DNA of 32,504 bases from assembly GCA_964388035.1 (NCBI GenBank), contig CAYLZE010000051.1, positions 1 to 32,504 of the forward strand. Reading direction: 5' to 3'. The notes under the pieces were generated by a model. The model was given only the letters and a program-made list of their open reading frames with translations, did not search any database and was not told the origin of the DNA. The stretch comes from an uncultured archaeon. GTDB taxonomy: Archaea; Asgardarchaeota; Lokiarchaeia; Sigyniarchaeales; SOKP01. Below are positions 7,230-24,753 of the stretch, piece after piece (within the stretch, counting starts at the first letter, position 1; each line of letters starts with the position of its first letter). The translations under genes and the position numbers were made by a program.

Positions 7230-8447
7230 GTGATTATTATGCATGAAAAAAAATGGAATAATACAAGAACATTAGAAAGATTAAAAGAGTTTAGCTTTCC
7301 CAGACTATCTGGAACTAAAAATTTAGAAGATGCCAGAGATATTATTTTTAAACAACTTAAAGAGAATGTTCCAGATACAAAGATTGAAGAATTCCATTGT
7401 AGGAACGAATTAACAAGAGTTTTTAGGTTTTGGGCCCCCATTTTTTTAGGAAGCATCTTAATAACTCTAATTATATGGGAGATATTTTATATTATTTCTA
7501 TTTTTCTTGCAGTGATGATTATATTATTGAATTTAATCGCTCAAGGGAGAATAGGAAATATGCAAGTTTATAAATGGTATCACAATAGGGGTCCCATAAA
7601 TGGATATAACATAAGGGGAAAAATAGAAGCAAGTAAGGAGGAAAAAAAAGTGTTAATAATCGGAGCTCACTATGATACCAAGTCATCTCTTTTATGGAAA
7701 AGAATAAATAGTGATATAATGGCTTATTCGGTATTAATAGTGAATCTATTATTCATTATCTTTGGTATTATAAGAATCTTTATTGCATACACGTTAATCT
7801 GGTGGTTCTCTCCTATCCTTTGGATAGGTACTGCTATAGAATTCATTTCTACGGCACTTCTTACTTTGCTTTATAGCGTTCATAATGAATCTCCTGGTGT
7901 AAATGATAATGGTTCAGGAGTGGCGATAATTCTTGAATTAGCGGAGATTTTTTCAATTCACCTTCCCCTAAATCTTTCGATAATATTCGTTTTATTTGAT
8001 GCGGAAGAAATTGGATTACAAGGTGCCGCTGCAGACGCCAGATCTTATTATAAGGAGTCTATGAATAAAGACCCATGGATGATCAATTTAGATGAAGTGG
8101 GTGCGGATAATGTTTTAAAATTAATTATAAAGAGCGGTTTTCCCTCAATTGATCACGGAACTCTACTAAATCCTGCTTTTATTAAGGCCATTGAGAGTAA
8201 TGAAATCCTTAAAGATTTAAAGAACAATAAAAAAATTTTACCTAATATGAAATTATTTCTCTCACAATCTGATCATTGGCCATTTTTCTTTGCAGGAATT
8301 CCTTCCGTCTACATTACAACAGGTAATAAAAAAAGACATTCTCCCGCTGATACAATGGAAGCAATAAAACCAGAATCGATTGAAACTACCGGAATGCTAT
8401 TGATGGAATTTATTAAGGTTTTAGATGATGATCTTTCTAGTAATTAA
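7230..8447 (+). CDS. Membrane-embedded M28 family metallopeptidase
   Basis: GAHYDT, PGVNDNGSG, DAEEIGLQG, INLDE, SDH and RHSPADT motifs, with two inserted hydrophobic hairpins. Start is GTG 7230 or ATG 7239. Confidence 0.85.
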   Translation: MIIMHEKKWNNTRTLERLKEFSFPRLSGTKNLEDARDIIFKQLKENVPDTKIEEFHCRNELTRVFRFWAPIFLGSILITLIIWEIFYIISIFLAVMIILLNLIAQGRIGNMQVYKWYHNRGPINGYNIRGKIEASKEEKKVLIIGAHYDTKSSLLWKRINSDIMAYSVLIVNLLFIIFGIIRIFIAYTLIWWFSPILWIGTAIEFISTALLTLLYSVHNESPGVNDNGSGVAIILELAEIFSIHLPLNLSIIFVLFDAEEIGLQGAAADARSYYKESMNKDPWMINLDEVGADNVLKLIIKSGFPSIDHGTLLNPAFIKAIESNEILKDLKNNKKILPNMKLFLSQSDHWPFFFAGIPSVYITTGNKKRHSPADTMEAIKPESIETTGMLLMEFIKVLDDDLSSN

Positions 8448-8519
8448 ATTACATGTATGAGTTATTTTGGGAATTTTATGTTAATCTGTAATAATAATAG
8501 AAAAAAAAGGTGATTTAAA

Positions 8520-9932
8520 ATGAGTGAGAATGTTAATGAAATGAAAGATGCTAATGAAGAAGTCGTATTTAAGAAACATTCAACAAAAGATATGATTTCT
8601 TATTGCATAAATATCATGGCTATTCAAATAATTTCAGTTATTTTCGTGACTCGGCTTTTTATATTTTATGAAACTAATGTAGGATTATCCATTGGGTTAA
8701 TTGGTTTGGGATATTCAATTTATACCATTTGGGACGCATTTAATGAACCATTTTCAGGTTATCTATCTGATAGGCCCAATCGCTTATGGAAAAGATGGGG
8801 AAAGCGATTTCCGTGGATTGTCTTCTCGGCAATCCCGATCTCTATAAGTTTTTTTTTAATTTTTATCCCTCCCGATCCAGCAATTAGCGAAATTGCCACG
8901 TTTCTCTGGTTCTTAATCATATTATGTGTTTATGATGGTATTTACTCTATCTGGAATTTAAATTTCCTTGCTTTATTGCCAGATAAGTATCGTTCAGAAA
9001 AAGAACGCACGAAAGTAAGCGGCCTGAGGGTTCCTTTTCACGTTGGAGGATTATTAATTGGGTTAATCTTACCCCCTCTTATCATAGAATATGGAAATCA
9101 AGCCTCTTACATTACCATGGCACTTGTAGTTACTATTTTATTAGTAGTTCTTACAATAGTATCTATTCCTGGCTTGCGTGAAGATGAGGAAATGAGAAAA
9201 AGAACACTCGAAACCATAAAAACCAAACACGAACCCTTTTTTAAAAGTCTAAGAAACTCATTTAAACACAAGAACTTCAGAATATGGGTTATTGCAGGTA
9301 TCATGGCATTTGCATGGGATGCACTCTTAGTATCTGCAATACCTTATTACGTGCAATATGTATTGAGACTCGATGCGGAAGTGGAAATCTTTCTTTATCT
9401 ACCATATTTATTTGCTGGAATCATATTCATTCCATTATGGACAAAATTATGTAACAAATATGGTCATTGGAAAATATATAAGATAGGCCTCCTCATTAGA
9501 CCGCTTACCTTTATTCCAATACTTTTTATTTCTGATTTAGGCCCATCAATTATTTTTGTATTCATAATGGGAGCTGCTATTGGAGGTACGAATATTGCTC
9601 TTCAGCCCGTTCAAGGAGATTTGATGGATGAAGCAGCACTCCTCCATGGCGATCGACATGAAGGAAGATATTTTGGTATCTATACATTTGTAGCTAAAGC
9701 TGGCAATTTTATACAAGTTATAGTGATCGTATTATTACACACGTTAACTAATTTTAATCCAACACCTGGAGCGGTTCAGACGCCACTAGCAATTTTAGGT
9801 ATCCGATTCCATTTGGCATTAGCACCTTTAATTCTAATGTCAATAGAAGCCTTCATTTTCATTAAGTGGTGGGATTTAATTCCAGAAAAGACTGCGGAAA
9901 TTCAAGTTAAAATACAAGAGCTCAAATTATGA
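8520..9932 (+). CDS. MFS transporter, GPH/MelB (glycoside-pentoside-hexuronide:cation symporter) family
   Basis: About 12 TM; WDAFNEPFSGYLSDR, WGKRFPW and RHEGRYFG motifs. GGTGA SD at 8509-8513. Confidence 0.88.
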   Translation: MSENVNEMKDANEEVVFKKHSTKDMISYCINIMAIQIISVIFVTRLFIFYETNVGLSIGLIGLGYSIYTIWDAFNEPFSGYLSDRPNRLWKRWGKRFPWIVFSAIPISISFFLIFIPPDPAISEIATFLWFLIILCVYDGIYSIWNLNFLALLPDKYRSEKERTKVSGLRVPFHVGGLLIGLILPPLIIEYGNQASYITMALVVTILLVVLTIVSIPGLREDEEMRKRTLETIKTKHEPFFKSLRNSFKHKNFRIWVIAGIMAFAWDALLVSAIPYYVQYVLRLDAEVEIFLYLPYLFAGIIFIPLWTKLCNKYGHWKIYKIGLLIRPLTFIPILFISDLGPSIIFVFIMGAAIGGTNIALQPVQGDLMDEAALLHGDRHEGRYFGIYTFVAKAGNFIQVIVIVLLHTLTNFNPTPGAVQTPLAILGIRFHLALAPLILMSIEAFIFIKWWDLIPEKTAEIQVKIQELKL

Positions 9933-10012
9933 AATCCAAGTAAATTAATTATCATTTTTTTTTTAAAAATCAAAATAGAAATAATTGAATTAAAAAAGTA
10001 CTGAATTTTATC

Positions 10013-11389
10013 ATGGAATTTTGGAAAACAATAAATATAAAACAAATTTTAAATAAAGTTCCCGATTACACGGAATTCTTATCCATTGAAGAATTAGACA
10101 ATTCAAGTATGAAACTTGCGGATGCCTATGAAAATGTTAGCCTTTTTGAGATAGGAAAATCAAAAGAGGGAAGAATCATAAATTGTTTAAAAATTGGAGA
10201 AGGAAATAAAAATATTTTATTTTTTGGATTTCCTCATCCAAATGAGCCAATAGGTTCCTTAACCGTAGAATTCTTATCCCAATATTTGGCTGAAACTCCT
10301 GAATTTACAAGGGAATCAGGATATACATGGTTTCTTGTTAAGGCTATAGATATGGATGGAGCAAAATTGAATGAAGGATGGTTTAAAGGGAATTTTGATC
10401 CTTTAAAAAGGGCCAAGAACTATTATAGACCTCCTTTTCATGAACAAGTGGAATGGACTTTTCCTGTTGAGTATAAAAAACTTAAATTCGATTCCCCAAT
10501 CCCAGCCACACAAGCACTCATGAAATTAATGAAAGAAATAAAGCCTTATTTTCTCTACAGTTTACATAATGCAGGATTTTGTGGTGTCTATTTTTATGTC
10601 TCTCAAGATAATAGACAAATGTGCTTAGAACTTCAAGATTTAGTCAGAACTGAAAACTTACCATTGCATCAAGGAGAGCCAGAAATGGAGTTCAGTAAGC
10701 AATTATATCCTGCTATTTATCAACAATTTACAATTCAAGCGATATACGACTACTATGAAAGTCAAGGATACAATTTAAATGAATTCACGAAGATAGGTGC
10801 TGGTTCTAATGATTACCTTCAAGAAATCGCTGGAAGTGACAATTTTTCCTTAATATGTGAAATGCCCTACATATATGATAAAGCTCTTGAAAATTCGAAT
10901 CCATCAGAATATAATAGGAGGGAGATTATTGTAGAAGAAGGGAAAGTTCGGAAGAGATTTTTCTCCAACATGAAAAAGATATTCAAGCAAATTCAACCTT
11001 ACTGCAACAAGGATAGTAGATTATATTCTACTGTAAATGCGACCATGAACTTATATAAAACACAATTAAATCTCCAATTAGGTTTAGCTAAAACTTCCCC
11101 CGAATATGATCGCATGGCAACAATTGCAGAAGCATTTGATTCTAAATATGCTTCAAAATACTTTGATTTGAACACTTTTTCACAATTAGGGAGATTATGT
11201 GAAGAGTCATATAGATTACATCCAAATCATCCCGAATTAAGGAATTATCAGAAACAAGTAGAAGATAAAGTAGAACACCGAATGAAAAGTTTAATGAGTA
11301 AGGTTAACCTTGAAGTGATCCCTATAAGGAAACTTGTTAGAGTACAGGTCGGTAGTGGGTTGATAGCATTAAAATACATATCCAGCTAA
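10013..11389 (+). CDS. M14 family zinc carboxypeptidase-like protein
   Basis: IGKSKEGR, HPNE (HxxE zinc motif), DMDGA, SLHN (third ligand) and CEMP. Confidence 0.8.
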   Translation: MEFWKTINIKQILNKVPDYTEFLSIEELDNSSMKLADAYENVSLFEIGKSKEGRIINCLKIGEGNKNILFFGFPHPNEPIGSLTVEFLSQYLAETPEFTRESGYTWFLVKAIDMDGAKLNEGWFKGNFDPLKRAKNYYRPPFHEQVEWTFPVEYKKLKFDSPIPATQALMKLMKEIKPYFLYSLHNAGFCGVYFYVSQDNRQMCLELQDLVRTENLPLHQGEPEMEFSKQLYPAIYQQFTIQAIYDYYESQGYNLNEFTKIGAGSNDYLQEIAGSDNFSLICEMPYIYDKALENSNPSEYNRREIIVEEGKVRKRFFSNMKKIFKQIQPYCNKDSRLYSTVNATMNLYKTQLNLQLGLAKTSPEYDRMATIAEAFDSKYASKYFDLNTFSQLGRLCEESYRLHPNHPELRNYQKQVEDKVEHRMKSLMSKVNLEVIPIRKLVRVQVGSGLIALKYISS

Positions 11390-11473
11390 ATTTTTTTCGA
11401 AAGTATGAAATACATTCTTTTTTTATATAGTTTATTCCATATGGTTTGTTATATTTATTTTTGAGTGATATAA

Positions 11474-12634
11474 TTGAGAATGAGAGTAAATGAATCGCAA
11501 TTATTAACCGTTTTAAAAAATCTTATCAAGATTGAATCGATAAATCCTACTTTAGCAAAGGAAGGAAGTGGAGAAGCAGCAATAGCTTACTACATCGGAG
11601 ACTATTTGAAAGATTTAGGTCTCGATGTGAAGTTTCAAAAAATCGCAGAAAATAGACCAAACACGATAGGGATTTTAAAGGGTAAAGGCAATGGAAGATC
11701 ATTACTTTTAAATGGGCATACTGACACGGTCAGCGTATCTAGCATGAAGATTGAGCCTTTTAATCCGTTATTTAAAGCGGGAAAAGTATATGGGAGAGGT
11801 GCCTCTGATATGAAATGTGGTCTCGCAATGATGATAATGGCTGCTCAGACCATTTTTCAAAATGATCTTGAATTAAAAGGAAATCTCTTAATGGCTTACG
11901 TTGCGGATGAAGAATATGCCAGTCTAGGAACAGAGGAATTGGTAAAGGAATACACGGCGGAAGGTGGAATTGTGTGTGAGCCATCAAATATGAATATCAT
12001 TATCGCCCATAAAGGATTCGCATGGATTAAGGTTAATGTTCATGGCAAATCGGCTCATGGAAGTCTTAAAGATTTTGGAGTGGATGCGATTGTAAAAGCA
12101 GGTAAATTTTTAGCTAAGATTGAAGAATTAGAACAGTTATCTCTCTCTCAGAAAAAGCATGAATTATTGGGATCTCCATCCATTCATGCTTCACTAATTA
12201 ATGGAGGAATTGAATTAAGCACCTACCCCGATGAATGTAAGATCGAATTAGAACGCAGGAATCTGCCAGGGGAGACACCAAAGATAATCTCAAACGAAAT
12301 ACAATCGTTAATCGATAATATACACGAAAATGATGATAAATTCCAAGCAGAACAAGAAATTTTCTTCTATAGATCTCCATTAGAAATTTCAAAAGATGAA
12401 AAGATTGTTAAATCATTAGAAAAGTCGTGTAGAGAATTAGATATCAAGCCATCCTATGGAGGATTTGCAGGGTGGACGGATGCAGCATTGATGAATGACG
12501 CTGGAACGCCTACGGTGATCTTTGGTCCTAAAGGAACGGGTAACCATGGAGACATTGAATTTGTGAATTTTAAATCTGTAATTAAATCAACAGAAATCTT
12601 GATTAATACCATTATTGATTTTTGTAATCATTAA
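11474..12634 (+). CDS. M20A ArgE/DapE family deacylase (acetylornithine deacetylase-like)
   Basis: LNGHTDTV, YGRGASDMKCG, ADEE, CEP, GKSAHG, WTDA and FGP..GNH..E motifs. Start is TTG 11474 or ATG 11480. Confidence 0.9.
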   Translation: MRMRVNESQLLTVLKNLIKIESINPTLAKEGSGEAAIAYYIGDYLKDLGLDVKFQKIAENRPNTIGILKGKGNGRSLLLNGHTDTVSVSSMKIEPFNPLFKAGKVYGRGASDMKCGLAMMIMAAQTIFQNDLELKGNLLMAYVADEEYASLGTEELVKEYTAEGGIVCEPSNMNIIIAHKGFAWIKVNVHGKSAHGSLKDFGVDAIVKAGKFLAKIEELEQLSLSQKKHELLGSPSIHASLINGGIELSTYPDECKIELERRNLPGETPKIISNEIQSLIDNIHENDDKFQAEQEIFFYRSPLEISKDEKIVKSLEKSCRELDIKPSYGGFAGWTDAALMNDAGTPTVIFGPKGTGNHGDIEFVNFKSVIKSTEILINTIIDFCNH

Positions 12635-12696: not shown

Positions 12697-14181
12697 ATGA
12701 TGATTGATTTAAGCATCAAAGAAAAACAATTAGAAGCTACTATAGAAAGATTAAGGCAGAGAAATATCATATTGCCTACTTTCGAACAAATGAAAAATCC
12801 AAACAAGAATATACCTTTGAAGATTAAAGAAGAGTTAGCAAAAATCGGATTATGGGAAGTTCATAGTCGGAATTTATTTAGAATAAATTGGAAAAACGAA
12901 CCCGTTGAGAATGGGGGCGGGTTTCGAGACTTGCCAAATTATCTCGAGCTTCCCTCAGAGTTGACAGGCGTGAAAGCAAGGATAATCGCTCTAATTGGAA
13001 AATGGTTTCCGACAGGTTCTCATAAAGTGGGGGCCACCTATGGTTGTCTTGTTCCCAAATTGATCTCGGGACAATTTAATCCCGTGTCCCAAAAGGCGGT
13101 TTGGCCCTCGACTGGGAACTATTGTAGGGGAGGAGCTTATAATGCAACACTTTTAGCCTGCGAAAGCATCGCCATCCTTCCCGAAGGCATGAGTAAGGAA
13201 CGGTTTGAATGGTTAAAAACAGTGGCGGGAGAAATTATAGCGACTCCCGGTACGGAAAGCAATGTTAAAGAAATTTATGATAAATGTCATGAATTAATGG
13301 CAAGTCCTCGAGGGCAGATGGGGGAGATAGTGATTTTTAATCAATTTGAAGAATTTGGTAATCATTTATGGCATTACGAAGTTACAGGGCATGCGATGGA
13401 GGAAATACTGAATAAGGAATTGAAAAAGGCTCGATTTCGAGGAATCGCTATAACAACGGGTTCTGCGGGAACTATTGGATGTGGAGATTATCTAAAAGAG
13501 AAATTTCCTGCTTCTAAAATTGCTGCTGGTGAGGCCTTGCAATGTCCTACCTTACTATTGAATGGGTATGGCGCACATCGGATAGAAGGAATCGGAGATA
13601 AACACGTGCCTTGGATACATAATGTTAAAAACACGGATATGGTCATTGCGATTGATGATAATGATACAATGGCTATTGCAAGGCTTTTTAATGAATCTCA
13701 AGGACAAAAATATCTGGAAAAATTGGGAGTTTCTAAAGAATTAATAAACAAGCTAAATCTGCTCGGAATTTCAAGCATAGCAAACATGCTCATGGCTTGT
13801 AAAATGGCAAAATATTATGAAATGGATGAAAATGATGTTATTCTTACCATCTTTACCGATTCCATGGATTTATATCAATCTCGCCTTCAAGAAATGAGAC
13901 AACAATACGGAGAATACACGGAATTAGATGCAGTCCGAGATTATCACGTATCTCTATTGGGGCAAAAAACTGATAATATGGCTGAATTGAATTATTTACA
14001 ACGTCGCAGAATCCACAATCTAAAATATTATACGTGGATTGAACAACAAGGAAAAACCTTAAAAGAATTGGACGATCAATGGTATGATAATAACAAGTAT
14101 TGGTCATTAAGAAAATCAACTATAACCCAAATTGATAAGTTAATCAAAGAGGTTAATGAAAGAGTAGGATTAATAAGCTGA
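12697..14181 (+). CDS. Fold-type II PLP-dependent enzyme (cysteine synthase/tryptophan synthase beta superfamily), substrate unknown
   Basis: PTGSHKVG (Schiff-base Lys), PSTGNY, NQF, TTGSAGT phosphate loop and HRIEGIG. At 494 aa it has long terminal extensions relative to CysK. Confidence 0.85.
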   Translation: MMIDLSIKEKQLEATIERLRQRNIILPTFEQMKNPNKNIPLKIKEELAKIGLWEVHSRNLFRINWKNEPVENGGGFRDLPNYLELPSELTGVKARIIALIGKWFPTGSHKVGATYGCLVPKLISGQFNPVSQKAVWPSTGNYCRGGAYNATLLACESIAILPEGMSKERFEWLKTVAGEIIATPGTESNVKEIYDKCHELMASPRGQMGEIVIFNQFEEFGNHLWHYEVTGHAMEEILNKELKKARFRGIAITTGSAGTIGCGDYLKEKFPASKIAAGEALQCPTLLLNGYGAHRIEGIGDKHVPWIHNVKNTDMVIAIDDNDTMAIARLFNESQGQKYLEKLGVSKELINKLNLLGISSIANMLMACKMAKYYEMDENDVILTIFTDSMDLYQSRLQEMRQQYGEYTELDAVRDYHVSLLGQKTDNMAELNYLQRRRIHNLKYYTWIEQQGKTLKELDDQWYDNNKYWSLRKSTITQIDKLIKEVNERVGLIS

Positions 14182-14222: not shown

Positions 14223-15227
14223 TTATTTTTGGAATATTTTATATATGAATTCTTTTATTTTTTCTATAGCTCTCTTGCTATCCTCCAAATCATACCCAAA
14301 ACTTTGAAATACATGCGTCATACCATCCCAAACCTCTATGACCACGTCTACTCCAGCTGCTTTAGCCCGCTCTGCTAATGTAATGGAATCATCGAGCAGA
14401 ACTTCAATGCCTCCCGCTTGAATTAATAAAGGAGGAAGTCCGCTCAAATCGGCAAGGATGGGAGAGGCTAAGGGATTTTTTTTGTTTTTAGGCCCGACTA
14501 AATAAATGCTTGCCATGGCTCTCAGCGTGGTTGCTAGTTCTGGTTCATATTTCGCATTCTCCTTGAGTGATTTCCCTTTACACGTTAAATCTACCCATGG
14601 GGATAATAATACAGCGCCGGCTGGCATTGGCAACTTTAATTCCTTAATTTTTAATAACGTAGAAACGGATAATCCTCCACCAGCAGAATCTCCTCCGATT
14701 ATCACCTTATTTGGTTTGATTCCCGTGGATAATAGCCATTTATATGCCTTAATAGAATCTTCGATTGCTGCTGGAAAAGGATGTTCCGGAGCTAAACGAT
14801 ATTGGGGTTGAAAACAACGCATTTTAGTTGCCCGCCCTAATAAGAGCGGAATCCGTCTTCTTGTTTCGAGAGTGCCCATTAGATATCCTCCCCCAAACAA
14901 GTAAAAAATAACTTCCTCTTCGGAAACATTGGGATTTATTATCCATTCTGCGGGAATACCATCGGCGTCCACTCTTTCATAATTTACATCCTTAGGGAGC
15001 CTTTTAAATCCATCCAAAGCGGTATAATCTGATATGTATCTTGCTAATTCAATGATGGAACTCCAATCTCCTCTTCTGTTGATCGCATCATCAATTGGAA
15101 TACCCTTCTTTTCAGCAAAGACCCTTGCTGCTTCTTCGCTCAAATCACTATCTCTTTGTAATAATGCTGCTAACTCAGGATGAATTTTTGAAATTTCTAT
15201 AATTGCAGAATTCCCCTTAACTGCCAT
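14223..15227 (-). CDS. Alpha/beta hydrolase, HSL (family IV) esterase/acetyl-hydrolase
   Basis: FGGGY (HGGG variant), YRLAPEHPFPAA, GDSAGG nucleophile elbow, SPW, EVLLDD and MTHVF. Confidence 0.92.
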   Translation of the reverse strand: MAVKGNSAIIEISKIHPELAALLQRDSDLSEEAARVFAEKKGIPIDDAINRRGDWSSIIELARYISDYTALDGFKRLPKDVNYERVDADGIPAEWIINPNVSEEEVIFYLFGGGYLMGTLETRRRIPLLLGRATKMRCFQPQYRLAPEHPFPAAIEDSIKAYKWLLSTGIKPNKVIIGGDSAGGGLSVSTLLKIKELKLPMPAGAVLLSPWVDLTCKGKSLKENAKYEPELATTLRAMASIYLVGPKNKKNPLASPILADLSGLPPLLIQAGGIEVLLDDSITLAERAKAAGVDVVIEVWDGMTHVFQSFGYDLEDSKRAIEKIKEFIYKIFQK

Positions 15228-15258: not shown

Positions 15259-15273
15259 TTGTAATTTTTACAA
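15259..15273. promoter_or_regulatory. Palindrome TTGTAA-N3-TTACAA upstream of the intact hydrolase
   Basis: Perfect 6-3-6 inverted repeat about 32 nt upstream of ATG 15227; retained upstream of the paralog. Confidence 0.4.
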
Positions 15274-16420: not shown

Positions 16421-16435
16421 TTGTAATTATTACAA
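16421..16435. promoter_or_regulatory. Palindrome TTGTAAT-T-ATTACAA upstream of the hydrolase pseudogene
   Basis: Perfect 7-1-7 inverted repeat in the 57-nt gap between the racemase stop and the hydrolase ATG. Confidence 0.4.
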
Positions 16436-16443: not shown

Positions 16444-17139
16444 TTATCCGTTAAGGGCAAATTCAACAGCCTTTCTAGCGTGGATTTCTGTGGTAGAAAA
16501 CACGGGGATGTCAACATGTTCTTGCTTTATTAATAATGGTATTTCTGTACATCCCAATACAATTCCCTCTGCTCCTCTTTTTTTTAGGTTCTCGATAATA
16601 TGAAGAAATACTTCTCTTGAAGAATCCTTAATTCTTCCCATTACTAATTCTTTAAAAATTACTTCATTCACCTTTTTTCTCTCTTCAACATCGGGAATGA
16701 TTACTTCCAGTCCGTACTTATCCTTCATTCTCTCTTTATAAAAATCTTCTTCCATTGTAAATTTAGATCCAAGGAGACCCACTTTTTTAAATCCTTTTTC
16801 TATGATTTTCTCAGCAGCTGCATCCGCAATATGTAAAAATGGGATTTTTATTTCCCTTTCTATATTATTAGCAATTTTGTGTACTGTATTGCAACAGATA
16901 AGAAGCATGGCTGCACCCCCCTTTTCTAAATTTTGTGCGGCATGTACTAATATTGAAGATATTTCATTCCATTCTTTCCTATTCAAAAGATCTTCGATAT
17001 GACCGCCATCTACTGTATACATTAAGCTTTCCGCACAATGTAAGCCGCCTTTAATTTCCATTAGTGTTTCATTTATAATTTTATAATATTCAGCGGAAGC
17101 ATACCAAGACATTCCCCCAATTAAACCAATTGTTTTCAT
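16444..17139 (-). CDS. PLP-independent aspartate/glutamate racemase family protein (YgeA/RacX-like amino-acid racemase)
   Basis: MKTIGLIGGMSW N-terminus; both catalytic cysteine motifs (CCNTVH and LGCTEIP) are present. Confidence 0.92.
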   Translation of the reverse strand: MKTIGLIGGMSWYASAEYYKIINETLMEIKGGLHCAESLMYTVDGGHIEDLLNRKEWNEISSILVHAAQNLEKGGAAMLLICCNTVHKIANNIEREIKIPFLHIADAAAEKIIEKGFKKVGLLGSKFTMEEDFYKERMKDKYGLEVIIPDVEERKKVNEVIFKELVMGRIKDSSREVFLHIIENLKKRGAEGIVLGCTEIPLLIKQEHVDIPVFSTTEIHARKAVEFALNG

Positions 17140-17734: not shown

Positions 17735-18043
17735 ATGTCATTTACAATTAAAGCACGAATAATAGGTTATTATAAAGATGACTTAAATTTTGACTATGAA
17801 GATGGAAGTTTTGAATGGTTTGACTCAACTAAATTAAGGATTATCGAACCTCCGCATATGAAGGATAAAGAATTTTATATTTTTCATAACTCATTGAATA
17901 AGATTGAAGATACTTGGACTCTAACTGGCGTTACACTCCTTATTACATTTAAAGAAGGATTTTTTGAGAAATGGGATGACATTTTTTCATCACATACTTT
18001 TATTTTTACAAATGCAATAAACTTTAAATTCTTAGATAATTAG
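17735..18043 (+). CDS. Hypothetical protein (102 aa)
   Basis: ATG-start ORF filling an otherwise empty gap; aromatic- and beta-strand-rich; no recognisable motif. Confidence 0.55.
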   Translation: MSFTIKARIIGYYKDDLNFDYEDGSFEWFDSTKLRIIEPPHMKDKEFYIFHNSLNKIEDTWTLTGVTLLITFKEGFFEKWDDIFSSHTFIFTNAINFKFLDN

Positions 18044-18116: not shown

Positions 18117-19676
18117 TTAAGGAGCTTGATATCGAGCATTTCCATTCATGACTTTACCGTTTAGTATCATATCGATTGCTTGCATTCCTCCAAGCAATGC
18201 TCCAAATACGCCATGAACAAATTTTGGGTTAAACAGTCCTTTGACAGGAGTTCTCATTTTTAATCGGGTTCTTCCAAAATTATCCGTGTAAGGAGCCATT
18301 TCATAAATAGAACCTGTCGGCGATCCAGAATAACGCTTATAAGTCGCGGGAGTGGACACATCGGTCACTAAAATATGCTTCGAAAGTTCGGGAATCATGT
18401 ATTTTTCTACTTTAGTGATAAAAAAGTTCGCCCATTTCTCTTTTTCCTCGTTATATTTCTTCCTATCGTCTTGCCGGAGTGTTTCCCAATTTCCTAGTTG
18501 CATGGGGGTGATACGGATCGAGATATTTGGTCTCCCCCCTGTCGTGAGAGAAGGGCAAATCACGCCCATGTGAAAGCGTTGGTCATTGAATCCGATTTCT
18601 CCTTTTTCATAAGCATCAAATAATCGGTCATAAGAGTCTCCTCCCGTGGTTAAGACATTATATCCGCAATCCAAGCCCAAGGCTTCTAAATCAATTTTAT
18701 CATCCAACCCCAAACTCACGTTCATTGAAGAGGTGGACATTTTTACTTCCTCCACTTTTTTCGCGTATTTTGCATCCAGATTACGGAGGATATCCATTCC
18801 CACCATTTTTTCCATTAATTGTTTAGTATCCGCAGTATTAATTACATAATCCGCCAATATTTTTTGACCTCCCTTTAATTCCACCCCTTTTACCTGATCC
18901 CCCTCAATTAATACCTTTTCTACTTCACTCTTTAACATTAGTTCTCCGCCCAATGCCTTATAACGGTCTTCCAGTGCTTTAGTAAATTCAATGAATGGTC
19001 CCACAGTTCGAAAAGTACCATCTAATAAAGAATTCATGGCCGAAATGGGGACTATCGCCGCAACGCGTTCAGAAGGAAGGGCTGCAAATTCCGCAAATAC
19101 GTTAAAAATTTCCTGAACATCCGGTTCCGAAATATTAAATTGGTTAAAATATTCGGAAAAGGTCTTACTACCATTCTTCAAGATTTTTGGGCAAGCAAAT
19201 AGAACCTTTAGAATATCCACGAATTTAGGCTCCACCTTCAATTTAAACAATTCTAAATACATTTCCCTTGAATAATCTAAAAACTTTTCGATTTGCGGTG
19301 CATTAGAGGGATATTTTTCCATGAGATATTTTTTAAAGTTTTCCGTCCCCGAAGGTAATTCTAAAAGATTCACTTTATCCGTTTCGGGATTTACATTAAA
19401 GATGCGCATGTAATAACCCTTAAATCTCTTTAGCTCGATCTCAACACCGAGAAAATTTAATAAGTCCGAGATATTGGGAAGCATTTGACAGGTATCAAAC
19501 CAAAAATCCTCTCGTTCATACGATGTTACGAAGCCCCCCGTTTTAGGATTTCTTTCAATTATCAAAACGGGATCCTCTTTAACATCATGATTCAATGCCC
19601 AGGTAATTCCAGCGCTTAATCCCGATATTCCCCCACCTATTATGATTAAACTTTTTTCTTGCATGAATTTCACCAT
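18117..19676 (-). CDS. FAD-dependent oxidoreductase, phytoene desaturase (CrtI)/retinol saturase-like family
   Basis: IIIGGGISGL dinucleotide fold, GGFVTSYEREDFWFD, ADYVINTAD and STPATYKRYSGSPTGSIY. Start is ATG 19676 or 19664. Confidence 0.82.
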   Translation of the reverse strand: MVKFMQEKSLIIIGGGISGLSAGITWALNHDVKEDPVLIIERNPKTGGFVTSYEREDFWFDTCQMLPNISDLLNFLGVEIELKRFKGYYMRIFNVNPETDKVNLLELPSGTENFKKYLMEKYPSNAPQIEKFLDYSREMYLELFKLKVEPKFVDILKVLFACPKILKNGSKTFSEYFNQFNISEPDVQEIFNVFAEFAALPSERVAAIVPISAMNSLLDGTFRTVGPFIEFTKALEDRYKALGGELMLKSEVEKVLIEGDQVKGVELKGGQKILADYVINTADTKQLMEKMVGMDILRNLDAKYAKKVEEVKMSTSSMNVSLGLDDKIDLEALGLDCGYNVLTTGGDSYDRLFDAYEKGEIGFNDQRFHMGVICPSLTTGGRPNISIRITPMQLGNWETLRQDDRKKYNEEKEKWANFFITKVEKYMIPELSKHILVTDVSTPATYKRYSGSPTGSIYEMAPYTDNFGRTRLKMRTPVKGLFNPKFVHGVFGALLGGMQAIDMILNGKVMNGNARYQAP

Positions 19677-19844
19677 TTTTTTATAAAAATTCGATTAAAT
19701 ACTATATAAAGGTTTACTCTATCATAAAAAATTACCCTAATTGCTTAAGAAAAGTGCAAAAAAATAAAAAGAATTATAGAATGAGAATAAAAAATCGTAT
19801 AAAAGAATCTCTTTTCTTATATAAATTAAATTAAGATAACTCCC

Positions 19845-21467
19845 TCATGTTCGACGTTTTATAACCATTCCCGGCTTCTTTTTGAACTGTTTTTCATGGT
19901 CAATCACGATAACTCCGTTAACTATAACATAATCAATTCCTTCGGGAATTTGATACGGTTTATCAAAAGTTGCCTTATCCTTGATAGTTTCTGGATTAAA
20001 AATTACTAAATCAGCCCAACTCTCTTCCAGTAACAATCCCCTATCTTGGAGTCCTAGTTTCTGAGCAGGGAAGGAGGTCATCTTGCGAATGGCTTGTTCA
20101 ATTGTCAGTAACTTTTCCTCCCGCACGTACTTTCCTAAGATCCGAGGATAAGTGCCAAAGAAACGGGGATGGTATGTACCCTTACGAAATTTAATGGGAA
20201 TACCTCCTCCATCCGTTCCAATCATTTGGTAACGACTTGTCATGATTCTCCGAATATCCTCTTCTCCCATGCTTTCGATTGTGATTGAAACGGCAAATTG
20301 ATTTTCAATTAACAACTTAAAATATGTCTCCCAATCGTTCGAAAAACCTCTTATTTTGGTAATCTCTGAAATATTTTTACCCATTATATCAAACCATGCT
20401 TCATTACCTACTGAGGCAATATAAATATGGTCAAAACCGTTATCTTTAATCCAATTTTCCCAACCTTCACCTCCTTCTTCAATATCTTTTTGAATTTTAG
20501 CTTGATTTTCAGGCTTTTTAATGCGTTCAATTACAATATCACTGCTTTCTTCACGTGCCCATGGTGGCATGGTTGTGAATAAATCAGCCATGCCCCGATT
20601 ATAAGGATATTGATCGCACGTAATGTTCAAACCTCGTTCATTTGCTTCTGCTATCAATTTTAATGTTTCTACACTTTTTCCCCAATTTGCTTTACCGGAA
20701 ACTTTATGGTGTGCAATTTGGCCTCCCACGCATCCTGATTTTTCCACGATTTCTATTACTTCTTTCACGGCGTTCACTACATTTTTGTCTTCTCCTCTAA
20801 TATGTGAAAAATATAATCCATTATATTGGGCGACGACTTTAGCTAATTCAATTATCTCTTCTGTTTTAGCATATACTTGTGGAGCATAAATGAGTCCAGT
20901 GCTCATTCCAAAAGCGCCTGCTTCCATGGCTTCTCTAAGATAGCTCTTCATGGATTCCATTTCTTCAGGATTAGCGTCTCTATTTAGATCTCCTTGGCCC
21001 CCTGCGAATCTTAGATTTCTGTATCCCACGAAGAATATTAAATTTGCAGCAGTTCTTTTTTTCTCAAAATAGTTTAAATATTCTTTAAAAGTATGATACG
21101 GATAATCAAATTCTCCCAATGCAGGTTCAATTTTTGCCATGATTTTTTGGAACCCTTCTTCCTTTCCTTCCGGAATAGGTGCCATGCCATCGCCGCACAT
21201 GCCCACCACGCTAGTCGTTATTCCTTGATGAAGGGTGGATTCTTGATTTCGACTTACTGGCAAGATATAATCCGAATGCGAGTGAATGTCAATAAATCCG
21301 GGACATATTATCCGATCCTTCGCGTTAATGATAGTTTTCGCGGGCTCCTCGATTTTAGGCCGTATTTTTACTATTTTTCCGCCATTTATTGCGATCTCTC
21401 CGTAATACCACGGATTCCCCGCCCCATCAATGATTTTACCATTTTTAATTAAAATATCATGCGCCAT
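19845..21467 (-). CDS. N-acyl-D-amino-acid deacylase (D-aminoacylase, amidohydrolase superfamily), copy A
   Basis: PGFIDIHSHSD, GMCG, STGLIYAP, SHIRGE, AHHK, DQYPY, GTD and HPR.FGTYPR motifs. Alternative ATG at 21476. Confidence 0.92.
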   Translation of the reverse strand: MAHDILIKNGKIIDGAGNPWYYGEIAINGGKIVKIRPKIEEPAKTIINAKDRIICPGFIDIHSHSDYILPVSRNQESTLHQGITTSVVGMCGDGMAPIPEGKEEGFQKIMAKIEPALGEFDYPYHTFKEYLNYFEKKRTAANLIFFVGYRNLRFAGGQGDLNRDANPEEMESMKSYLREAMEAGAFGMSTGLIYAPQVYAKTEEIIELAKVVAQYNGLYFSHIRGEDKNVVNAVKEVIEIVEKSGCVGGQIAHHKVSGKANWGKSVETLKLIAEANERGLNITCDQYPYNRGMADLFTTMPPWAREESSDIVIERIKKPENQAKIQKDIEEGGEGWENWIKDNGFDHIYIASVGNEAWFDIMGKNISEITKIRGFSNDWETYFKLLIENQFAVSITIESMGEEDIRRIMTSRYQMIGTDGGGIPIKFRKGTYHPRFFGTYPRILGKYVREEKLLTIEQAIRKMTSFPAQKLGLQDRGLLLEESWADLVIFNPETIKDKATFDKPYQIPEGIDYVIVNGVIVIDHEKQFKKKPGMVIKRRT

Positions 21468-21582
21468 ACTTAACATGGAATTAAGAATTTAAAATAAAAT
21501 TATTTGATAGAAACCGATCGTCCTAAGAGTAATTGAGACAAAAGGAATTAGGAAAGAAAAAAATTGTGTAATAGCTAACGTT

Positions 21583-23205
21583 TTAAATGGGACGTTTTAT
21601 AACCACACCTGGTTTTTTTTTATTCTGCTTTCCATAGTCAACTACGATTACTCCATTTACAATAACATAATCAATACCTTCAGGAATTTGATAAGGATTT
21701 TCATAGGTTGCCTTGTCTTTAATCGTATCTGGATTGAAAATTACTATATCAGCCCAACTATCTTCCAATAACAATCCTCTATCTTGTAATCCTAATTTTT
21801 GAGCGGGAAAGGAGGTCATCTTGCGAATGGCTTGTTCTATTGTTAATAATTTTTCTTCTCGCACATATTTTCCCAATACTCTGGGATACGTTCCAAAACA
21901 TCTAGGATGAAAAGCACCCATGCTAAAAGATATCGGTACTCCAAATCCGTCCGTTCCTACCATTTGATATCGACTGGTCATGATTCTCCGAATATCCTCT
22001 TCTCCCATGCTTTGAATCGTTATCATCACTCCCATTTCATTCTCTATCAATAGCTTGAAAAAAGTTTCCCACTCATTAGCAAGTCCTTTGATTTTCGTTA
22101 TTTCTGAAATGTTTTTTCCTGCGATATCTTTCCACTCTGGATTATTCACGGAAGAAATGAATATATTACTAAAGCCATCATCTTTAATCCAATCTTCCCA
22201 ACCTTCAATGCCATTCTCTACTTCTTTTTTAATGCGAGCTTGATTCTCCGGATTTTTTATCCGTTCTAAGGCTTTTTCGCTTGTTCCCACTAATACCCAC
22301 GGGGGAAGTGCCGTTTCTAATCCGGACATGCCTCGATTATATGGGTATTGATCGCAAGTAATATTTAAGTTTCTTTCATTCGCTTCGGCTATTAATCGTA
22401 TGGTTTCTTCACTTTTTCCCCAATTTACTTTACCTGAGACTTTATGGTGTGCTATTTGACCCCCCACGCATCCCGACTTTTCCACGATTTCTATCACTTC
22501 TTTGACAGCGTTCACTACATTTTTATCTTCTCCTCTGATATGAGAAAAATATAATCCGTTATATTCTGCTACAATTTTTGCAAGTTCTATTATTTCTTCA
22601 GTGCTTGCATATACCTGTGGTGCATAAATCAGCCCAGTACTCATTCCGAAAGCTCCCGCTTCCATGGCTTCTCTGAGGTATTTCTTCATATTTTCCAATT
22701 CTTCGGGATTGGCATCTCTATCTTCTCCTCCTTGTCCTCCTGCGAATCGCAAATTATCATAGCCTATAAGAAACGCAAGATTGGCAGGGGTTCTTTTTTT
22801 CTGAATGTGGTCTAAATATTCTGCAAAAGTATGATAAGGATAGTCCATTTGTCCTAATACGGGATTCAAGCCCGACATCATTTTTTTAAATGCTTCTTCT
22901 TTTCCTTCCGGAATGGGTGCCATGCCATCCCCACACATTCCAACAACGCTCGTCGTTATTCCTTGATGAAGGGTAGATTCTTGATTTCGATTTATTGGCA
23001 ACATGTAATCTGAATGCGAATGAATGTCAATAAATCCTGGACAAAGTATATGATTTTGAGCATCAATGATAATTTTTGCAGGCTCCTCGATTTTAGGTCT
23101 AATTCCTACAATTTTTCCCTCTTTTATTGCGATCTCTCCGTAATACCACGGATTACCTGCCCCATCGATTATTTTACCATTCTTAATTAAAATATTATGT
23201 TCCAT
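21583..23205 (-). CDS. N-acyl-D-amino-acid deacylase (D-aminoacylase), copy B
   Basis: Same motifs and same length as copy A; tandem duplicate offset by 1738 nt. The ORF track starts at TTG 23214. Confidence 0.92.
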   Translation of the reverse strand: MEHNILIKNGKIIDGAGNPWYYGEIAIKEGKIVGIRPKIEEPAKIIIDAQNHILCPGFIDIHSHSDYMLPINRNQESTLHQGITTSVVGMCGDGMAPIPEGKEEAFKKMMSGLNPVLGQMDYPYHTFAEYLDHIQKKRTPANLAFLIGYDNLRFAGGQGGEDRDANPEELENMKKYLREAMEAGAFGMSTGLIYAPQVYASTEEIIELAKIVAEYNGLYFSHIRGEDKNVVNAVKEVIEIVEKSGCVGGQIAHHKVSGKVNWGKSEETIRLIAEANERNLNITCDQYPYNRGMSGLETALPPWVLVGTSEKALERIKNPENQARIKKEVENGIEGWEDWIKDDGFSNIFISSVNNPEWKDIAGKNISEITKIKGLANEWETFFKLLIENEMGVMITIQSMGEEDIRRIMTSRYQMVGTDGFGVPISFSMGAFHPRCFGTYPRVLGKYVREEKLLTIEQAIRKMTSFPAQKLGLQDRGLLLEDSWADIVIFNPDTIKDKATYENPYQIPEGIDYVIVNGVIVVDYGKQNKKKPGVVIKRPI

Positions 23206-23265
23206 ACTTAACAAGAAATTAAGAATTAAAAAAAAAATTTGGAAATTTTTAGTAAAAAGGTGAAT

Positions 23266-24753
23266 TTATTTTCCTTTTTCTTTTTTTTCTATACTGTCAG
23301 CTAACTTTTCAATTTTACTCTCGGGCGGAAATTCCTCAAAAACCACTTGTTCAGGGAAAGATGTTACAGTTTTCTTTATGTCAATTCCTTGTTTATTTAA
23401 CATTGCTTTGCGGATGAAATATAGAATAATTCCTATTATAATATAAGGTATCAGTATCAAGATAATGATTAATCCGGCATCAGGATCCGTGAGCAACAGT
23501 AATACGAAAATTATCGAGGAGACTCCTCCAATACCTCCCATTATTTTTATAGTTCGATCGCTCGGCTTGAATTTTGAATTTTCATGTAATTGTGGAAAAT
23601 TCTTCTTAAACAATATGGCACCAAAGCATATAGGTATTTGAAGGATTAATACTGCTACACCGACTACGGCACTTAACAATACTGCAGCCGTTTCAATTCC
23701 ATAGGATGGTGCGAGGGCAGGAATGAAGGTTAGAAGAAATACCATTCCAAAAACGAATAATAACGTTAATGCAGCGATGGGTGTCTTAAACCTTTTATGT
23801 ACATAAGCAAATTTACCCGGAAATAATTTATCTCTTCCTGCCATTAAAATGTCTCTAGAGAACGCCATGTATGATGGATGAAGTGTGGAAGCGATAGCAA
23901 CCGCAATGAGTATTGTTATAAAGATCACCGCACCTGGAGGGAGAATTCCTCCCTTTAAAATAATTTCTGTCACTGTTCCGACGGGCTGATTATAGGGTTG
24001 TATTGCAGCAACCATTAAAGATTGGGCTACATATAATATTAGTAATACCGGAATACTTATTAAAAGAGCTAAAGGGATGTTTCGTTGAGGCTTTTTAACT
24101 TCTCCCGCCACATCAATTATGAGAGTAAATCCTACATAAGAAAAGTAAAACGTCAATGCAGCAAAGAGAACGGGGCTAAAACCCAAGGGCATTAGGGGAG
24201 TGAGATTTTGTACCTTAAAAAAAGGAATTGCCGCAATTATAAAAATAATCATTACCAAAATATCCCCAAATATTGTTATAATCATTTCTACTAATCCCGT
24301 TATTTCAACATTAATAAAATTTAGTAGGTAAAAAGCCGCCAAAACGACAATTCCAATCCCAATTACGAAAAACATTTCCCATTCGTCAGGTATTTGAAAA
24401 AGCTCTGATATAAAAACACCAAAGGTTGCAGCTAAAAATGCCAAAGACGCACCTACAGCTAAAAGTATCATCCATAAGCTAAAGAAACCCATGAAGCCAC
24501 TTTTAAAAAGTCTCGAATTGATCATGTAAGTTCCACCTGCAATAGGTAAAGCCGCTCCTATATAAGCGGCGATATAAGCAACAAAGATTGCAGGTATAAC
24601 TGCGATTATGTATGCGATAAAAATAGCAGGACCCGTTCTAGATAGCCAAGCCGCTGGTGATATCCATATCGAGGCTCCTATTACCATGCCAACTATAATG
24701 AATATCGCCATCGGTAAATTAAGTCCTCTTTTCAATTCTTTATCTTCAGCCAT
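23266..24753 (-). CDS. APC superfamily amino-acid permease
   Basis: LKRGL, GMVIGASIW, GPA, AGGTY, FSYVGF..AGEVKKPQRNIP and SR..AGRDKLFP..F..VHKRFKTP motifs; about 12 TM. Confidence 0.92.
   Translation of the reverse strand: MAEDKELKRGLNLPMAIFIIVGMVIGASIWISPAAWLSRTGPAIFIAYIIAVIPAIFVAYIAAYIGAALPIAGGTYMINSRLFKSGFMGFFSLWMILLAVGASLAFLAATFGVFISELFQIPDEWEMFFVIGIGIVVLAAFYLLNFINVEITGLVEMIITIFGDILVMIIFIIAAIPFFKVQNLTPLMPLGFSPVLFAALTFYFSYVGFTLIIDVAGEVKKPQRNIPLALLISIPVLLILYVAQSLMVAAIQPYNQPVGTVTEIILKGGILPPGAVIFITILIAVAIASTLHPSYMAFSRDILMAGRDKLFPGKFAYVHKRFKTPIAALTLLFVFGMVFLLTFIPALAPSYGIETAAVLLSAVVGVAVLILQIPICFGAILFKKNFPQLHENSKFKPSDRTIKIMGGIGGVSSIIFVLLLLTDPDAGLIIILILIPYIIIGIILYFIRKAMLNKQGIDIKKTVTSFPEQVVFEEFPPESKIEKLADSIEKKEKGK

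Follow-up and report, generated by a model that had tools for sequence, protein, structure and literature searches.

A locus for putative salvage of amide-linked amino-acid compounds in a Lokiarchaeial genome appears to be a lineage-specific mosaic

Do the twelve genes that lie together on a contig of an uncultured archaeon, in a stretch of 32,504 nucleotides (the whole stretch analyzed, hereafter the window), form one conserved system for the scavenging of D-amino-acid and N-acylated material? A sequence-only reading had proposed such a single system in an Asgard-like archaeon. All of the genes that it listed were found in the window, its family assignments all held in Pfam and NCBIfam, and the archaeon was of the Loki type, with nearest homologues named Promethearchaeota or Lokiarchaeota. 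As for the single system itself, the enzyme identities and the general theme of uptake, amide hydrolysis, and amino-acid conversion stood, the theme being supported by independent evidence, but a search of 40 relatives turned up the 12-gene layout in none of them. As judged from the sequence comparisons, the locus is a patchwork, put together recently and particular to this genome, of three or more modules inherited separately, and its interpretation as a conserved D-amino-acid system is not supported. The use of D-amino-acid or N-acyl material as food by this archaeon is a plausible, putative trait.

Gene Content of the Locus

Two converging gene runs were present as proposed, but the minus-strand run is not continuous: a 977-bp gap separates the flavoprotein gene from the racemase gene and holds a 102-aa ORF on the plus strand (17735-18043) with no Pfam match and no assigned family. 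The gene identities and intact catalytic motifs described in this section were shown by the analysis, as were the mosaic history of the locus and the pairings that recur elsewhere, described thereafter.

At the left edge, Pfam matches identified a toxin-antitoxin pair of MNT (NTP_transf_2; 5303-5551, plus strand) and HepT (5589-5891, plus strand), followed by a winged-HTH regulator (HTH_11/HTH_5/MarR; 5936-6925, minus strand) that is divergent to the first gene of the plus-strand run. This gene encodes a polytopic membrane M28 metallopeptidase (7230-8447; PF04389, 101.7 bits) with TM-like segments at residues 64-109 and 159-214, and is followed on the same strand by a GPH/MFS_2 cation symporter (8520-9932; PF13347, 227.6 bits) and a zinc carboxypeptidase of the M14 family, cytosolic and bearing a helical domain at its C terminus (10013-11389; PF00246). 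The HxxE motif (H75/E78), H185, and E283 of the M14 enzyme are invariant across 14 homologues. An MpaA-like action on γ-D-glutamyl bonds, mentioned earlier for some M14 members, was not supported by structure modeling (pLDDT 86), in which the top folds were CPA/CPB/CPD/CPT, with no MpaA-type affinity. The M14 family is typical of Asgard archaea; it was detected in 15 of 200 genomes of the phylum, in contexts that are always unrelated, and in 0 of the 40 relatives. The run ends with an M20 deacylase or peptidase of the ArgE/DapE family (11474-12634; TIGR01910, 274.4 bits against a cut-off of 217.6; PDB DapE 7uoi, E 6e-32) and a 494-aa fold-type II PLP enzyme, here called PALP490 (12697-14181; PF00291).

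The minus-strand run begins with an APC-superfamily amino-acid permease (23266-24753; PF13520 and PF00324), followed by two D-aminoacylase-family amidohydrolases, copy 2 (21583-23214) and copy 1 (19845-21476), which are 79% identical. Both match the PDB entries 9g5m, 3gip, and 1m7j at E values of 1e-72 to 1e-78 (7e-78, 6e-74, and 5e-72, respectively, for copy 1). They share the fold of the known D-aminoacylases and can be aligned with them at the HxH, Cys, His, His, Asp, and YPY motifs, but they are about 60 residues longer than the known enzymes and score under the NCBIfam PRK09061 cut-off. The next gene encodes an FAD oxidoreductase (18117-19676) with weak Pfam and NCBIfam matches (PDB 4rep, E 3e-9), which appears only distantly CrtI- or amine-oxidase-like. 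Beyond the gap lies an Asp/Glu racemase of the two-cysteine YgeA type (16444-17139; TIGR00035, 236 bits against a cut-off of 93). It matches the PLP-independent E. coli YgeA/RacX-type racemases (5hqt, 5ell) over its full length (5hqt, E 8e-68) and retains both catalytic cysteines (Cys82/83 and Cys197), but it lies under the YgeA equivalog cut-off (263 versus 417). Of the two HSL hydrolases that had been described, the first is an intact alpha/beta esterase with a GDSAG motif (14223-15227; PF07859, 184.8 bits), but the second (15385-16386), a tandem duplicate with 74% identity to the first in one frame, is a pseudogene, with in-frame stops (TAG at 16294-16296, TAG at 16102-16104, and TGA at 15628-15630) and GDSAG changed to GGSSG.

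Comparison with Related Genomes

The history of the locus was read from a genome of the same genus (G001, contig C35), which is collinear with the window at both ends and carries a backbone of the APC permease, one D-aminoacylase, and the esterase. The D-aminoacylase adjoining APC in G001 is 75% identical to copy 2, the backbone orthologue, whose clade is widespread in Lokiarchaeota; copy 1 stems from a tandem duplication particular to this genome. The esterase, 68% identical, lies downstream of the APC-D-aminoacylase pair. The collinear locus of G001 is without the second D-aminoacylase, the flavoprotein, the racemase, and the entire plus-strand run. The added plus-strand segment is flanked by the toxin-antitoxin pair, which forms its left border (5303-5891) and has no match in the collinear region of G001, and by the HTH regulator, which lies within the missing segment. 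In a further genome, G013, the D-aminoacylase immediately adjoins the backbone genes w2467 and w6.

The M28, M20, and PALP490 genes are contiguous, in this order, in a genome of another genus (G024), at 56, 65, and 78% identity, respectively; the GPH symporter that sits within the trio in the window is missing there. These arrangements in G024, G001, and G013 indicate that the D-aminoacylase and PALP490 modules were inherited separately. In G036, which belongs to the same order, PALP490 lies beside a D-aminoacylase paralog, an NSAR-type racemase (TIGR01928), and a D-aminopeptidase-like gene, whereas the window has no NSAR gene.

The synteny and co-occurrence check suggested earlier gave a divided result: the APC-D-aminoacylase and M28-M20-PALP490 groupings recur, but the M14, racemase, and flavoprotein genes have no conserved neighbor link in the genomes searched. 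Flavoprotein orthologues (65-70% identity) from five relatives were never beside a D-aminoacylase, racemase, APC, or HSL gene. The racemase is a paralog of C71_25182 in the same genome (65% identity); the closest racemases of the relatives are more similar to that paralog and have different gene neighborhoods, and in no relative searched was the racemase syntenic with a D-aminoacylase.

Recurrent Gene Pairings

Among the 40 relatives, APC and close D-aminoacylase orthologues co-occur in 6 of 6 genomes (Fisher P 1.8e-6, phylogeny ignored), with genome size as a confounder, as D-aminoacylase-bearing genomes average 4.2 Mb against 3.7 Mb for those without. The two genes are adjacent only inside the genus; outside it they lie on different contigs. 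This genome has 9 other D-aminoacylase loci. An M20 gene lies no more than two genes away at 2 of them (0.12 expected; P 0.006, phylogeny ignored), with M20 neighbors on C37 and C42, and an MFS_2/GPH gene does so at 4 or more (0.64 expected; P 0.004, phylogeny ignored), with such neighbors on C1, C13, and C53. At C53, the D-aminoacylase paralog also lies near an S58 DmpA aminopeptidase and an OCD-family gene. The genome is rich in such hydrolase and transporter genes, with about 82 GPH, 13 D-aminoacylase, 13 M20, and 10 M28 members, and the sizes of the first three families mean that some juxtaposition is expected.

The PALP490 Family

On the available sequences, PALP490 represents an uncharacterized, highly conserved family. 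It has a CysK/CBS-like core with N- and C-terminal helical extensions, K110 aligns with the PLP lysine of CysK, and its fold matches are CBS, OASS, and beta-cyanoalanine synthase. Homologues with 62-85% identity are spread through the Asgard archaea and numerous bacterial phyla, and a phylogenetic tree of the family was built. In bacteria, PALP490 lies within reductive urate-degradation clusters, with YgeY (513 bits), SsnA, a PreA/UacX-like reductase, an allantoinase/HyuA-like enzyme, a YgeW/OTC-like enzyme, XDH, and 8-oxoguanine deaminase. Among 80 PALP490 loci, YgeW-like genes were found in 29, HyuA-like in 28, YqeA in 21, YgeY in 12, and a true YgeX in only 1. An M20 gene adjoins PALP490 in about 12 of 75 loci of other phyla, these M20s being non-orthologous to that of the window. 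An identification of PALP490 as YgeX was rejected, as there was no significant similarity, and that of the window M20 as YgeY likewise (144 bits against a cut-off of 321; 26% identity).

Known Systems and Alternative Explanations

The known reductive uric-acid clusters, ygeW-ygeX-ygeY-hyuA-ssnA-xdhD of E. coli and the UacX/UacY variant of C. difficile (bioRxiv 10.1101/2025.05.19.654654), resemble the window in combining a D-aminoacylase homologue, an M20 hydrolase, and a fold-type II PLP lyase. The window might encode the lower half of such a route, from ureido/N-carbamoyl amino acids (2,3-diureidopropionate, albizziin) to pyruvate and ammonia, with the D-aminoacylases acting like UacY, itself a D-aminoacylase-family ureido-hydrolase (same reference), on the 2-ureido group, the M20 like YgeY on the 3-ureido group, and PALP490 replacing YgeX. 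The bacterial neighborhoods of PALP490, where YgeX is so rare, speak for this route. We nevertheless consider it unlikely, as the window M20 is not YgeY, the D-aminoacylase and PALP490 modules were inherited separately, the customary ThrC-like partner is missing at the window locus, and the upper urate pathway is missing in this lineage: neither an XDH MoCo domain nor an SsnA scoring above the cut-off was found in this genome (G000) or in G001, G024, and G036, which include its PALP490-bearing relatives, nor was any D-hydantoinase above the cut-off found in this genome. Still less probable is a dedicated system for bacterial cell-wall or D-amino-acid peptides, with an MpaA-like M14 and with the racemase and D-aminoacylases processing the released D-amino acids. 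These last enzymes are present, other loci of this genome and of G036 join D-aminoacylases to genes of the DmpA or D-aminopeptidase-like type and to an NSAR-type racemase, and there is a precedent in Pyrococcus abyssi, where the Pab87 neighborhood (PAB0086-PAB0095) was proposed to scavenge D-amino-acid-containing bacterial cell debris (PMC2651629). That neighborhood, which includes the D-aminoacylase PAB0090, weakens the earlier claim that no such archaeal locus had been described. Both archaeal loci, each a putative pathway, hold a D-aminoacylase homologue, a PLP enzyme, peptidase(s), and an amino-acid/peptide transporter, but the window has no CubicO (S12/beta-lactamase-type) peptidase or dipeptide ABC transporter, has instead APC and GPH carriers, M28/M14/M20 metallopeptidases, and a YgeA-type racemase, and its PLP enzyme is CysK-like rather than of the aminotransferase type. 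The generic carboxypeptidase fold of M14 and the unrelated contexts of its homologues argue against a cell-wall system, as do the lack of racemase-D-aminoacylase synteny in the relatives searched and the absence from the window of L,D-carboxypeptidase, amidase, NlpC/P60, MurNAc, and peptide ABC transporter genes.

Chance juxtaposition, in which independent members of expanded families met in a plastic, island-prone region with no common substrate or pathway, is a possible though doubtful explanation. It would accommodate a layout found in this genome only among those searched, the large families, the fluidity marked by the toxin-antitoxin pair, the pseudogene, and the tandem duplications, and the three genes without conserved partners. 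It accounts poorly for the recurrence of M28-M20-PALP490 in G024, the enrichment of D-aminoacylase-M20 and D-aminoacylase-MFS_2 adjacency at independent loci, the co-occurrence of APC with D-aminoacylase, and the D-aminoacylase paralog adjoining PALP490 in G036.

Proposed Model

We favor, with a probability of roughly one-half, a lineage-specific mosaic that serves the salvage of amide-linked amino-acid compounds. Genes would have accreted onto a conserved backbone of a longin-like gene, the APC permease, D-aminoacylase, and HSL esterase, by tandem duplication of two backbone genes, the D-aminoacylase and the esterase, with later decay of the extra esterase copy; by gain of the CrtI-like flavoprotein and the YgeA-type racemase; and by gain of an island-like segment with the toxin-antitoxin pair, HTH regulator, and M28-M20-PALP490 module, into which the GPH transporter and M14 carboxypeptidase may have been inserted later. 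These additions were judged against the collinear same-genus locus, and a deletion in that genome would look identical.

The substrates, their stereochemistry, and the joint action of the modules we infer as follows. Substrates would be imported via the APC and GPH carriers, N-acyl or N-carbamoyl groups would be removed by the D-aminoacylase-family enzymes and the M20 deacylase, and short peptides would be trimmed by the M28 and M14 enzymes. PALP490 would act on a product of the beta-substituted alanine type, probably through a beta-elimination that yields pyruvate and ammonia, and the racemase may interconvert acidic D/L-amino acids. The D-aminoacylase family includes UacY and also OngB, a GlcNAc1A (sugar-acid) deacetylase (PMC12017989), so neither substrate nor D-stereospecificity is readable from family membership. 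In other genera, the APC orthologue lies in a context of amino-acid and acyl-CoA catabolism, with ELFV dehydrogenase, PALP enzymes, AMP-ligase, ECH, MaoC, and OCD genes, and the AMP-ligase and ECH genes there have their best matches in the D-aminoacylase-M20 locus on C42 of this genome.

Gene Content of the Window

The window is contig C51 in full (32.5 kb), one of the 211 contigs of an assembly that totals 5.47 Mb (96.7% complete, 7.3% contaminated). Its genes were identified by ORF listing and Pfam/NCBIfam scans, and every gene named in the sequence-only reading was found to be present. The plus strand carries a polytopic membrane M28 peptidase (7230–8447), a GPH/MFS_2 cation symporter (8520–9932), an M14 carboxypeptidase (10013–11389; PF00246 above the cut-off), an ArgE/DapE-type M20 enzyme (11474–12634), and a 494-aa fold-type II pyridoxal phosphate (PLP) enzyme, here termed PALP490 (12697–14181). 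On the minus strand lie two copies of a hormone-sensitive-lipase (HSL) esterase gene (14223–15227 and 15385–16386), a two-cysteine Asp/Glu racemase (16444–17139), a distantly CrtI-like flavoprotein (18117–19676), two D-aminoacylase-family amidohydrolases (19845–21476 and 21583–23214), and an APC permease (23266–24753). The two converging gene runs described for 7230–24753 both exist, although the minus-strand run is broken by a 977-bp gap with an unrelated plus-strand ORF. The named close homologues belong to Promethearchaeota/Lokiarchaeota and other Asgard archaea, and the host was therefore correctly called Asgard-like.

The racemase has the Asp_Glu_race fold (PF01177, 145.8 bits), with Cys82/83 and Cys197, scores 236 bits against the TIGR00035 cut-off of 93, and matches the E. 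coli YgeA structure 5hqt at 8e-68; it is not a YgeA equivalog (NF007569, 263 bits against a cut-off of 417). The M20 enzyme contains catalytic and dimerisation domains (PF01546 and PF07687) and belongs to TIGR01910 (274.4 bits against 217.6). It is not an equivalog of ArgE, DapE or YgeY, as it scored 180 against 298 for acetylornithine deacetylase, 144 against 321 for YgeY, and below the cut-off in all DapE models. In the M14 enzyme, the zinc-site and catalytic Glu residues (H75, E78, H185, and E283) were invariant in 14 homologues. Its sequence matched no PDB entry, and the 50 best Foldseek hits of its model (pLDDT 86) were CPA, CPB, CPD, CPT, and CCP-like enzymes and not MpaA, to which it had been likened. 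On the strength of this fold search and the unrelated contexts at 12 Asgard loci, an MpaA-type (M14C) enzyme in a peptidoglycan-recycling context was rejected. Homologues of the M14 enzyme occurred in 15 of 200 genomes of the phylum and showed no association with genes for amide hydrolysis or amino-acid catabolism.

The assignment of two HSL hydrolases held for copy 1 (PF07859 Abhydrolase_3, 184.8 bits), which retains the nucleophile motif GDSAG (GGDSAGGG), but copy 2 is a pseudogene. Its frame is collinear and free of frameshifts, and it is interrupted by three single-base nonsense codons (TAG, TAG, and TGA), with GDSAG changed to GGSSG; the codons that differ between the copies comprise 79 synonymous and 85 non-synonymous ones. 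The promoter region of each copy contains a perfect palindrome, TTGTAAT-N-ATTACAA (15259–15273 and 16421–16435). The palindrome was absent from the other promoters of the window and showed no enrichment, with 9 matches where 4.3 were expected; a role as a shared operator was rejected, its restriction to the HSL genes being a by-product of the duplication.

Conservation of the Arrangement in Related Genomes

Gene calls in other genomes were made with a simple custom ORF caller. The arrangement, which had been interpreted as a scavenging system for N-acyl- and D-amino acids, was not conserved in the 40 closest relatives, drawn from the same genus, family, and order. Among these 40 genomes, M14 was found in none, PALP490 in two, and flavoprotein orthologues in six; none of these orthologues adjoined a gene for a D-aminoacylase, a racemase, an APC permease, or an esterase. 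The racemases of the 40 relatives were closer to a paralog on contig C71 than to the window copy, and their contexts differed.

The mosaic origin of the locus was evident from contig C35 of a relative of the same genus (G001), which shows collinearity with the window at each end. Its genes run in the order OsmC fragment, longin-like gene, APC (75% identity), a single D-aminoacylase (75%), 2.4 kb free of matches, HSL (68%), HIT, URO-D, and HAD, on to a VWA gene. Missing from this contig are a second D-aminoacylase, any flavoprotein or racemase gene, the duplicate of HSL, and the HTH regulator, as well as the entire M28-GPH-M14-M20-PALP run. At the left edge of the segment that is extra in the window lies an MNT (nucleotidyltransferase)/HepT toxin-antitoxin pair (5303–5891), together with the HTH regulator, which is typical of island-like insertions. 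Given the collinearity of C35 minus these additions and the island-type edge, the two converging runs are a recent, genome-specific composite. The locus is a real and mildly interesting mosaic and does not define a new system. All that G001 keeps of the flavoprotein is a 126-aa fragment (86% identity) on another contig (C19, 9811–10191; L043), which resembles a remnant left by a loss or a rearrangement. In the divergent intergenic region between the HTH and M28 genes of the window, a direct repeat (GTACCATT...GTACCATT, 21-nt spacing, 6939–6967) is a possible regulator site.

Recurrent Gene Pairings

Several pairs within the locus recurred elsewhere. The APC permease and the D-aminoacylase are adjacent within the genus, and close D-aminoacylase orthologues accompanied APC in all six APC-bearing genomes among the 40 relatives (Fisher P 1.8e-6, a value that ignores phylogeny and is biased towards larger genomes). 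Their presence and absence covaried inside three genera; outside the genus, the two genes lay on separate contigs. The M28, M20, and PALP490 genes were contiguous in a genome of a different genus (G024; 56, 65, and 78% identity), where GPH and M14 are absent, and the latter two therefore look like a later insertion into this trio. In another genome of the same order (G036; C55, 1624–8471; L014), PALP490 and its ThrC-like PLP neighbour lie directly next to opposite-strand genes for a D-aminoacylase paralog (43%), a MenC/NSAR-type racemase (TIGR01928 above the cut-off), and a class-C beta-lactamase/D-aminopeptidase-like protein; this is a more coherent D-/N-acyl-amino-acid cluster than the window.

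The APC orthologues of six relatives from other genera (L160–L165 in G024, G008, G014, G021, G015, and G030) shared a conserved catabolic neighbourhood that includes a Glu/Leu/Phe/Val dehydrogenase, two PALP enzymes, an AMP-ligase, an enoyl-CoA hydratase, and a MaoC dehydratase, with an OCD-family gene also present in G030. This neighbourhood is a candidate amino-acid fermentation module. Its AMP-ligase and hydratase were best matched by genes of a D-aminoacylase-M20 locus on contig C42 of the source genome (G000). Together with the paralog loci of the source genome described below, these pairings form a loose but real web of associations centred on the hydrolysis of amides and the catabolism of amino acids.

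The D-Aminoacylase Family in the Source Genome

The two D-aminoacylase-family copies of the window are 79% identical to each other, carry the Amidohydro_3 domain (PF07969 above the cut-off), and showed full-length similarity to solved structures (9g5m, 7e-78; 3gip, 6e-74; 1m7j, 5e-72). The residues for metal binding and catalysis (HxH, Cys, His, His, and Asp) are intact, as is the YPY hinge motif, which is named as conserved in the family (PMC12149444); in the HMMER alignment with 9g5m, HSH, mCG, sHir, hHK, tDG, and YPY were all aligned. Scores against NCBIfam PRK09061 were 195–197, below the cut-off of 340. Since the family also includes OngB, a sugar-acid (GlcNAc1A) deacetylase (PMC12017989), and UacY, a ureido-hydrolase (bioRxiv 10.1101/2025.05.19.654654), the sequence does not fix the substrate class or stereochemistry.

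There are 13 family hits in the source genome. An M20 gene divergently adjoins a paralog on C37, and the dense C42 locus (L142, 3004–11541) contains two paralogs in the order D-aminoacylase, Amidohydro_2, AMP-dependent ligase, D-aminoacylase, M20, and enoyl-CoA hydratase; the acyl group freed from N-acyl amino acids may be handled by its ligase and hydratase. The order on C53 is GPH, D-aminoacylase, S58 DmpA, OCD, and GPH, and the paralogs on C13 and C1 have MFS_2 or GPH genes as neighbours. Within two genes of the paralog loci, M20 was observed twice against 0.12 expected and MFS_2 at least four times against 0.64 expected (phylogeny ignored in both). M20 and MFS_2 were the only recurring partners, and a repeated cassette was accordingly rejected.

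The PALP490 Family

At E ≤ 1e-20, over 8000 homologues of PALP490 were found. Among the matches listed, identity was 62–85%, and these matches spanned Hod-, Thor-, Heimdall-, and Promethearchaeota, Chloroflexota, Atribacterota, Thermotogota, Synergistota, Bacillota, and other phyla. Asgard sequences were 62–70% identical to those of at least 10 bacterial phyla; the family is uncharacterised and appears to evolve very slowly. In alignments, K110 coincides with the PLP-binding lysine of cysteine synthases, the Asn and phosphate loops are retained, and the nearest folds to the model were CBS, OASS, and beta-cyanoalanine synthase. A quick tree with midpoint rooting placed the Asgard copies in one group (SH-aLRT 92), with a subclade of the window, G024, and G036 copies at a support of 100. 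This suggests a long presence of the enzyme in Asgard archaea, and a recent transfer from bacteria is unsupported.

Across 75 loci, the most frequent neighbours of PALP490 were a ThrC-like PLP enzyme (40), a conserved 190-aa protein without a Pfam family (29), and a dihydropyrimidinase/hydantoinase (25). A Bmp-type ABC transporter was a frequent neighbour in Anaerolineae; outside Anaerolineae, the context is the reductive purine/urate cluster, with YgeY (513 bits), SsnA, a PreA/UacX-like reductase, allantoinase/HyuA-like and YgeW/OTC-like proteins, 8-oxoguanine deaminase, and XDH. Comparison with E. coli reference proteins found true YgeX in only one of 80 PALP490 loci, whereas YgeW-like, HyuA-like, YqeA, and YgeY proteins were common. 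YgeX is the terminal lyase of the published reductive urate pathway (bioRxiv 10.1101/2025.05.19.654654), and the distribution is consistent with PALP490 filling this role in bacteria, perhaps jointly with the ThrC-like enzyme.

Possible Function and Relation to Known Systems

Sediment Asgard archaea are thought to feed on detrital proteins and amino acids. At this locus, the APC and GPH transporters may import amino acids or amide-linked derivatives, which the D-aminoacylase-family and M20 enzymes would deacylate or decarbamoylate, while M28 and M14 may trim peptides, PALP490 would convert a beta-substituted alanine-type product, and the racemase would act on acidic D/L-amino acids. A bolder reading, with a probability of slightly under one in five, is that PALP490 is a PLP lyase or beta-replacement enzyme that stands in for YgeX in bacteria, has become uncoupled from purines in this Lokiarchaeial lineage, and has been re-wired behind M28/M20 and D-aminoacylase-type deacylases. 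There it would mineralise beta-substituted alanines (2,3-diamino- or others) that are set free from necromass compounds of the N-acyl, N-carbamoyl, or peptide-bound kind.

A part in urate degradation is suggested by C. difficile, in which the D-aminoacylase homologue UacY acts alongside a PLP lyase and an enzyme of the M20 family. However, the XDH MoCo domain (PF02738) was found in none of G000, G001, G024, and G036, and SsnA (TIGR03314) was below the cut-off in all four (122 bits against 455 in G000), as was the G000 hydantoinase (TIGR02033, 154 bits against 393); the idea that this lineage runs the whole urate pathway was rejected on these grounds. Two further points against the reading are that the window M20 is distinct from YgeY and that the module with the D-aminoacylase and the one with PALP490 were inherited separately. 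No YgeX homologue was found, but PALP490, the PLP enzyme of YgeX-less bacterial clusters, might take its place. The urate-type reading is a minority rival of the salvage reading, and what could operate is at most the lower part of such a route, acting on ureido or N-carbamoyl amino acids.

A D-aminoacylase neighbourhood with a cell-wall-debris hypothesis has already been published for the archaeon Pyrococcus abyssi (PMC2651629), which weakens the supposed lack of an archaeal precedent. That Pab87-type neighbourhood shares a D-aminoacylase with the window, but it features an S12/CubicO peptidase and a peptide transporter, whereas the window contains neither a beta-lactamase/S12 domain nor an ABC transporter.

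Which recalcitrant nitrogen compounds (D-amino acids, N-acyl/N-carbamoyl amino acids, and cell-wall debris) these archaea can use bears on carbon and nitrogen cycling, and also on the metabolic background of the archaea most closely related to eukaryotes. The locus illustrates how such capacity builds up, with a permease-deacylase core extended by duplication and by island-like accretion, and its most valuable by-product is PALP490, a highly conserved, uncharacterised PLP family, as a biochemical target. The locus also highlights the expanded Lokiarchaeial D-aminoacylase family; a literature search combining D-aminoacylase with Asgard returned nothing, and such enzymes are already routinely annotated in Lokiarchaeota records. 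A 30-kb NCBI contig among the sources of the closest homologues may carry two D-aminoacylases.

The GPH/MFS_2 family is extremely expanded, with approximately 82 paralogs in the 5.5-Mb source genome. Three lie in the window (8520–9932, 26578–28020, and 28339–29781), two of them a tandem pair with 92.5% identity, and at the loci examined these genes adjoin hydrolases and not glycosidases.
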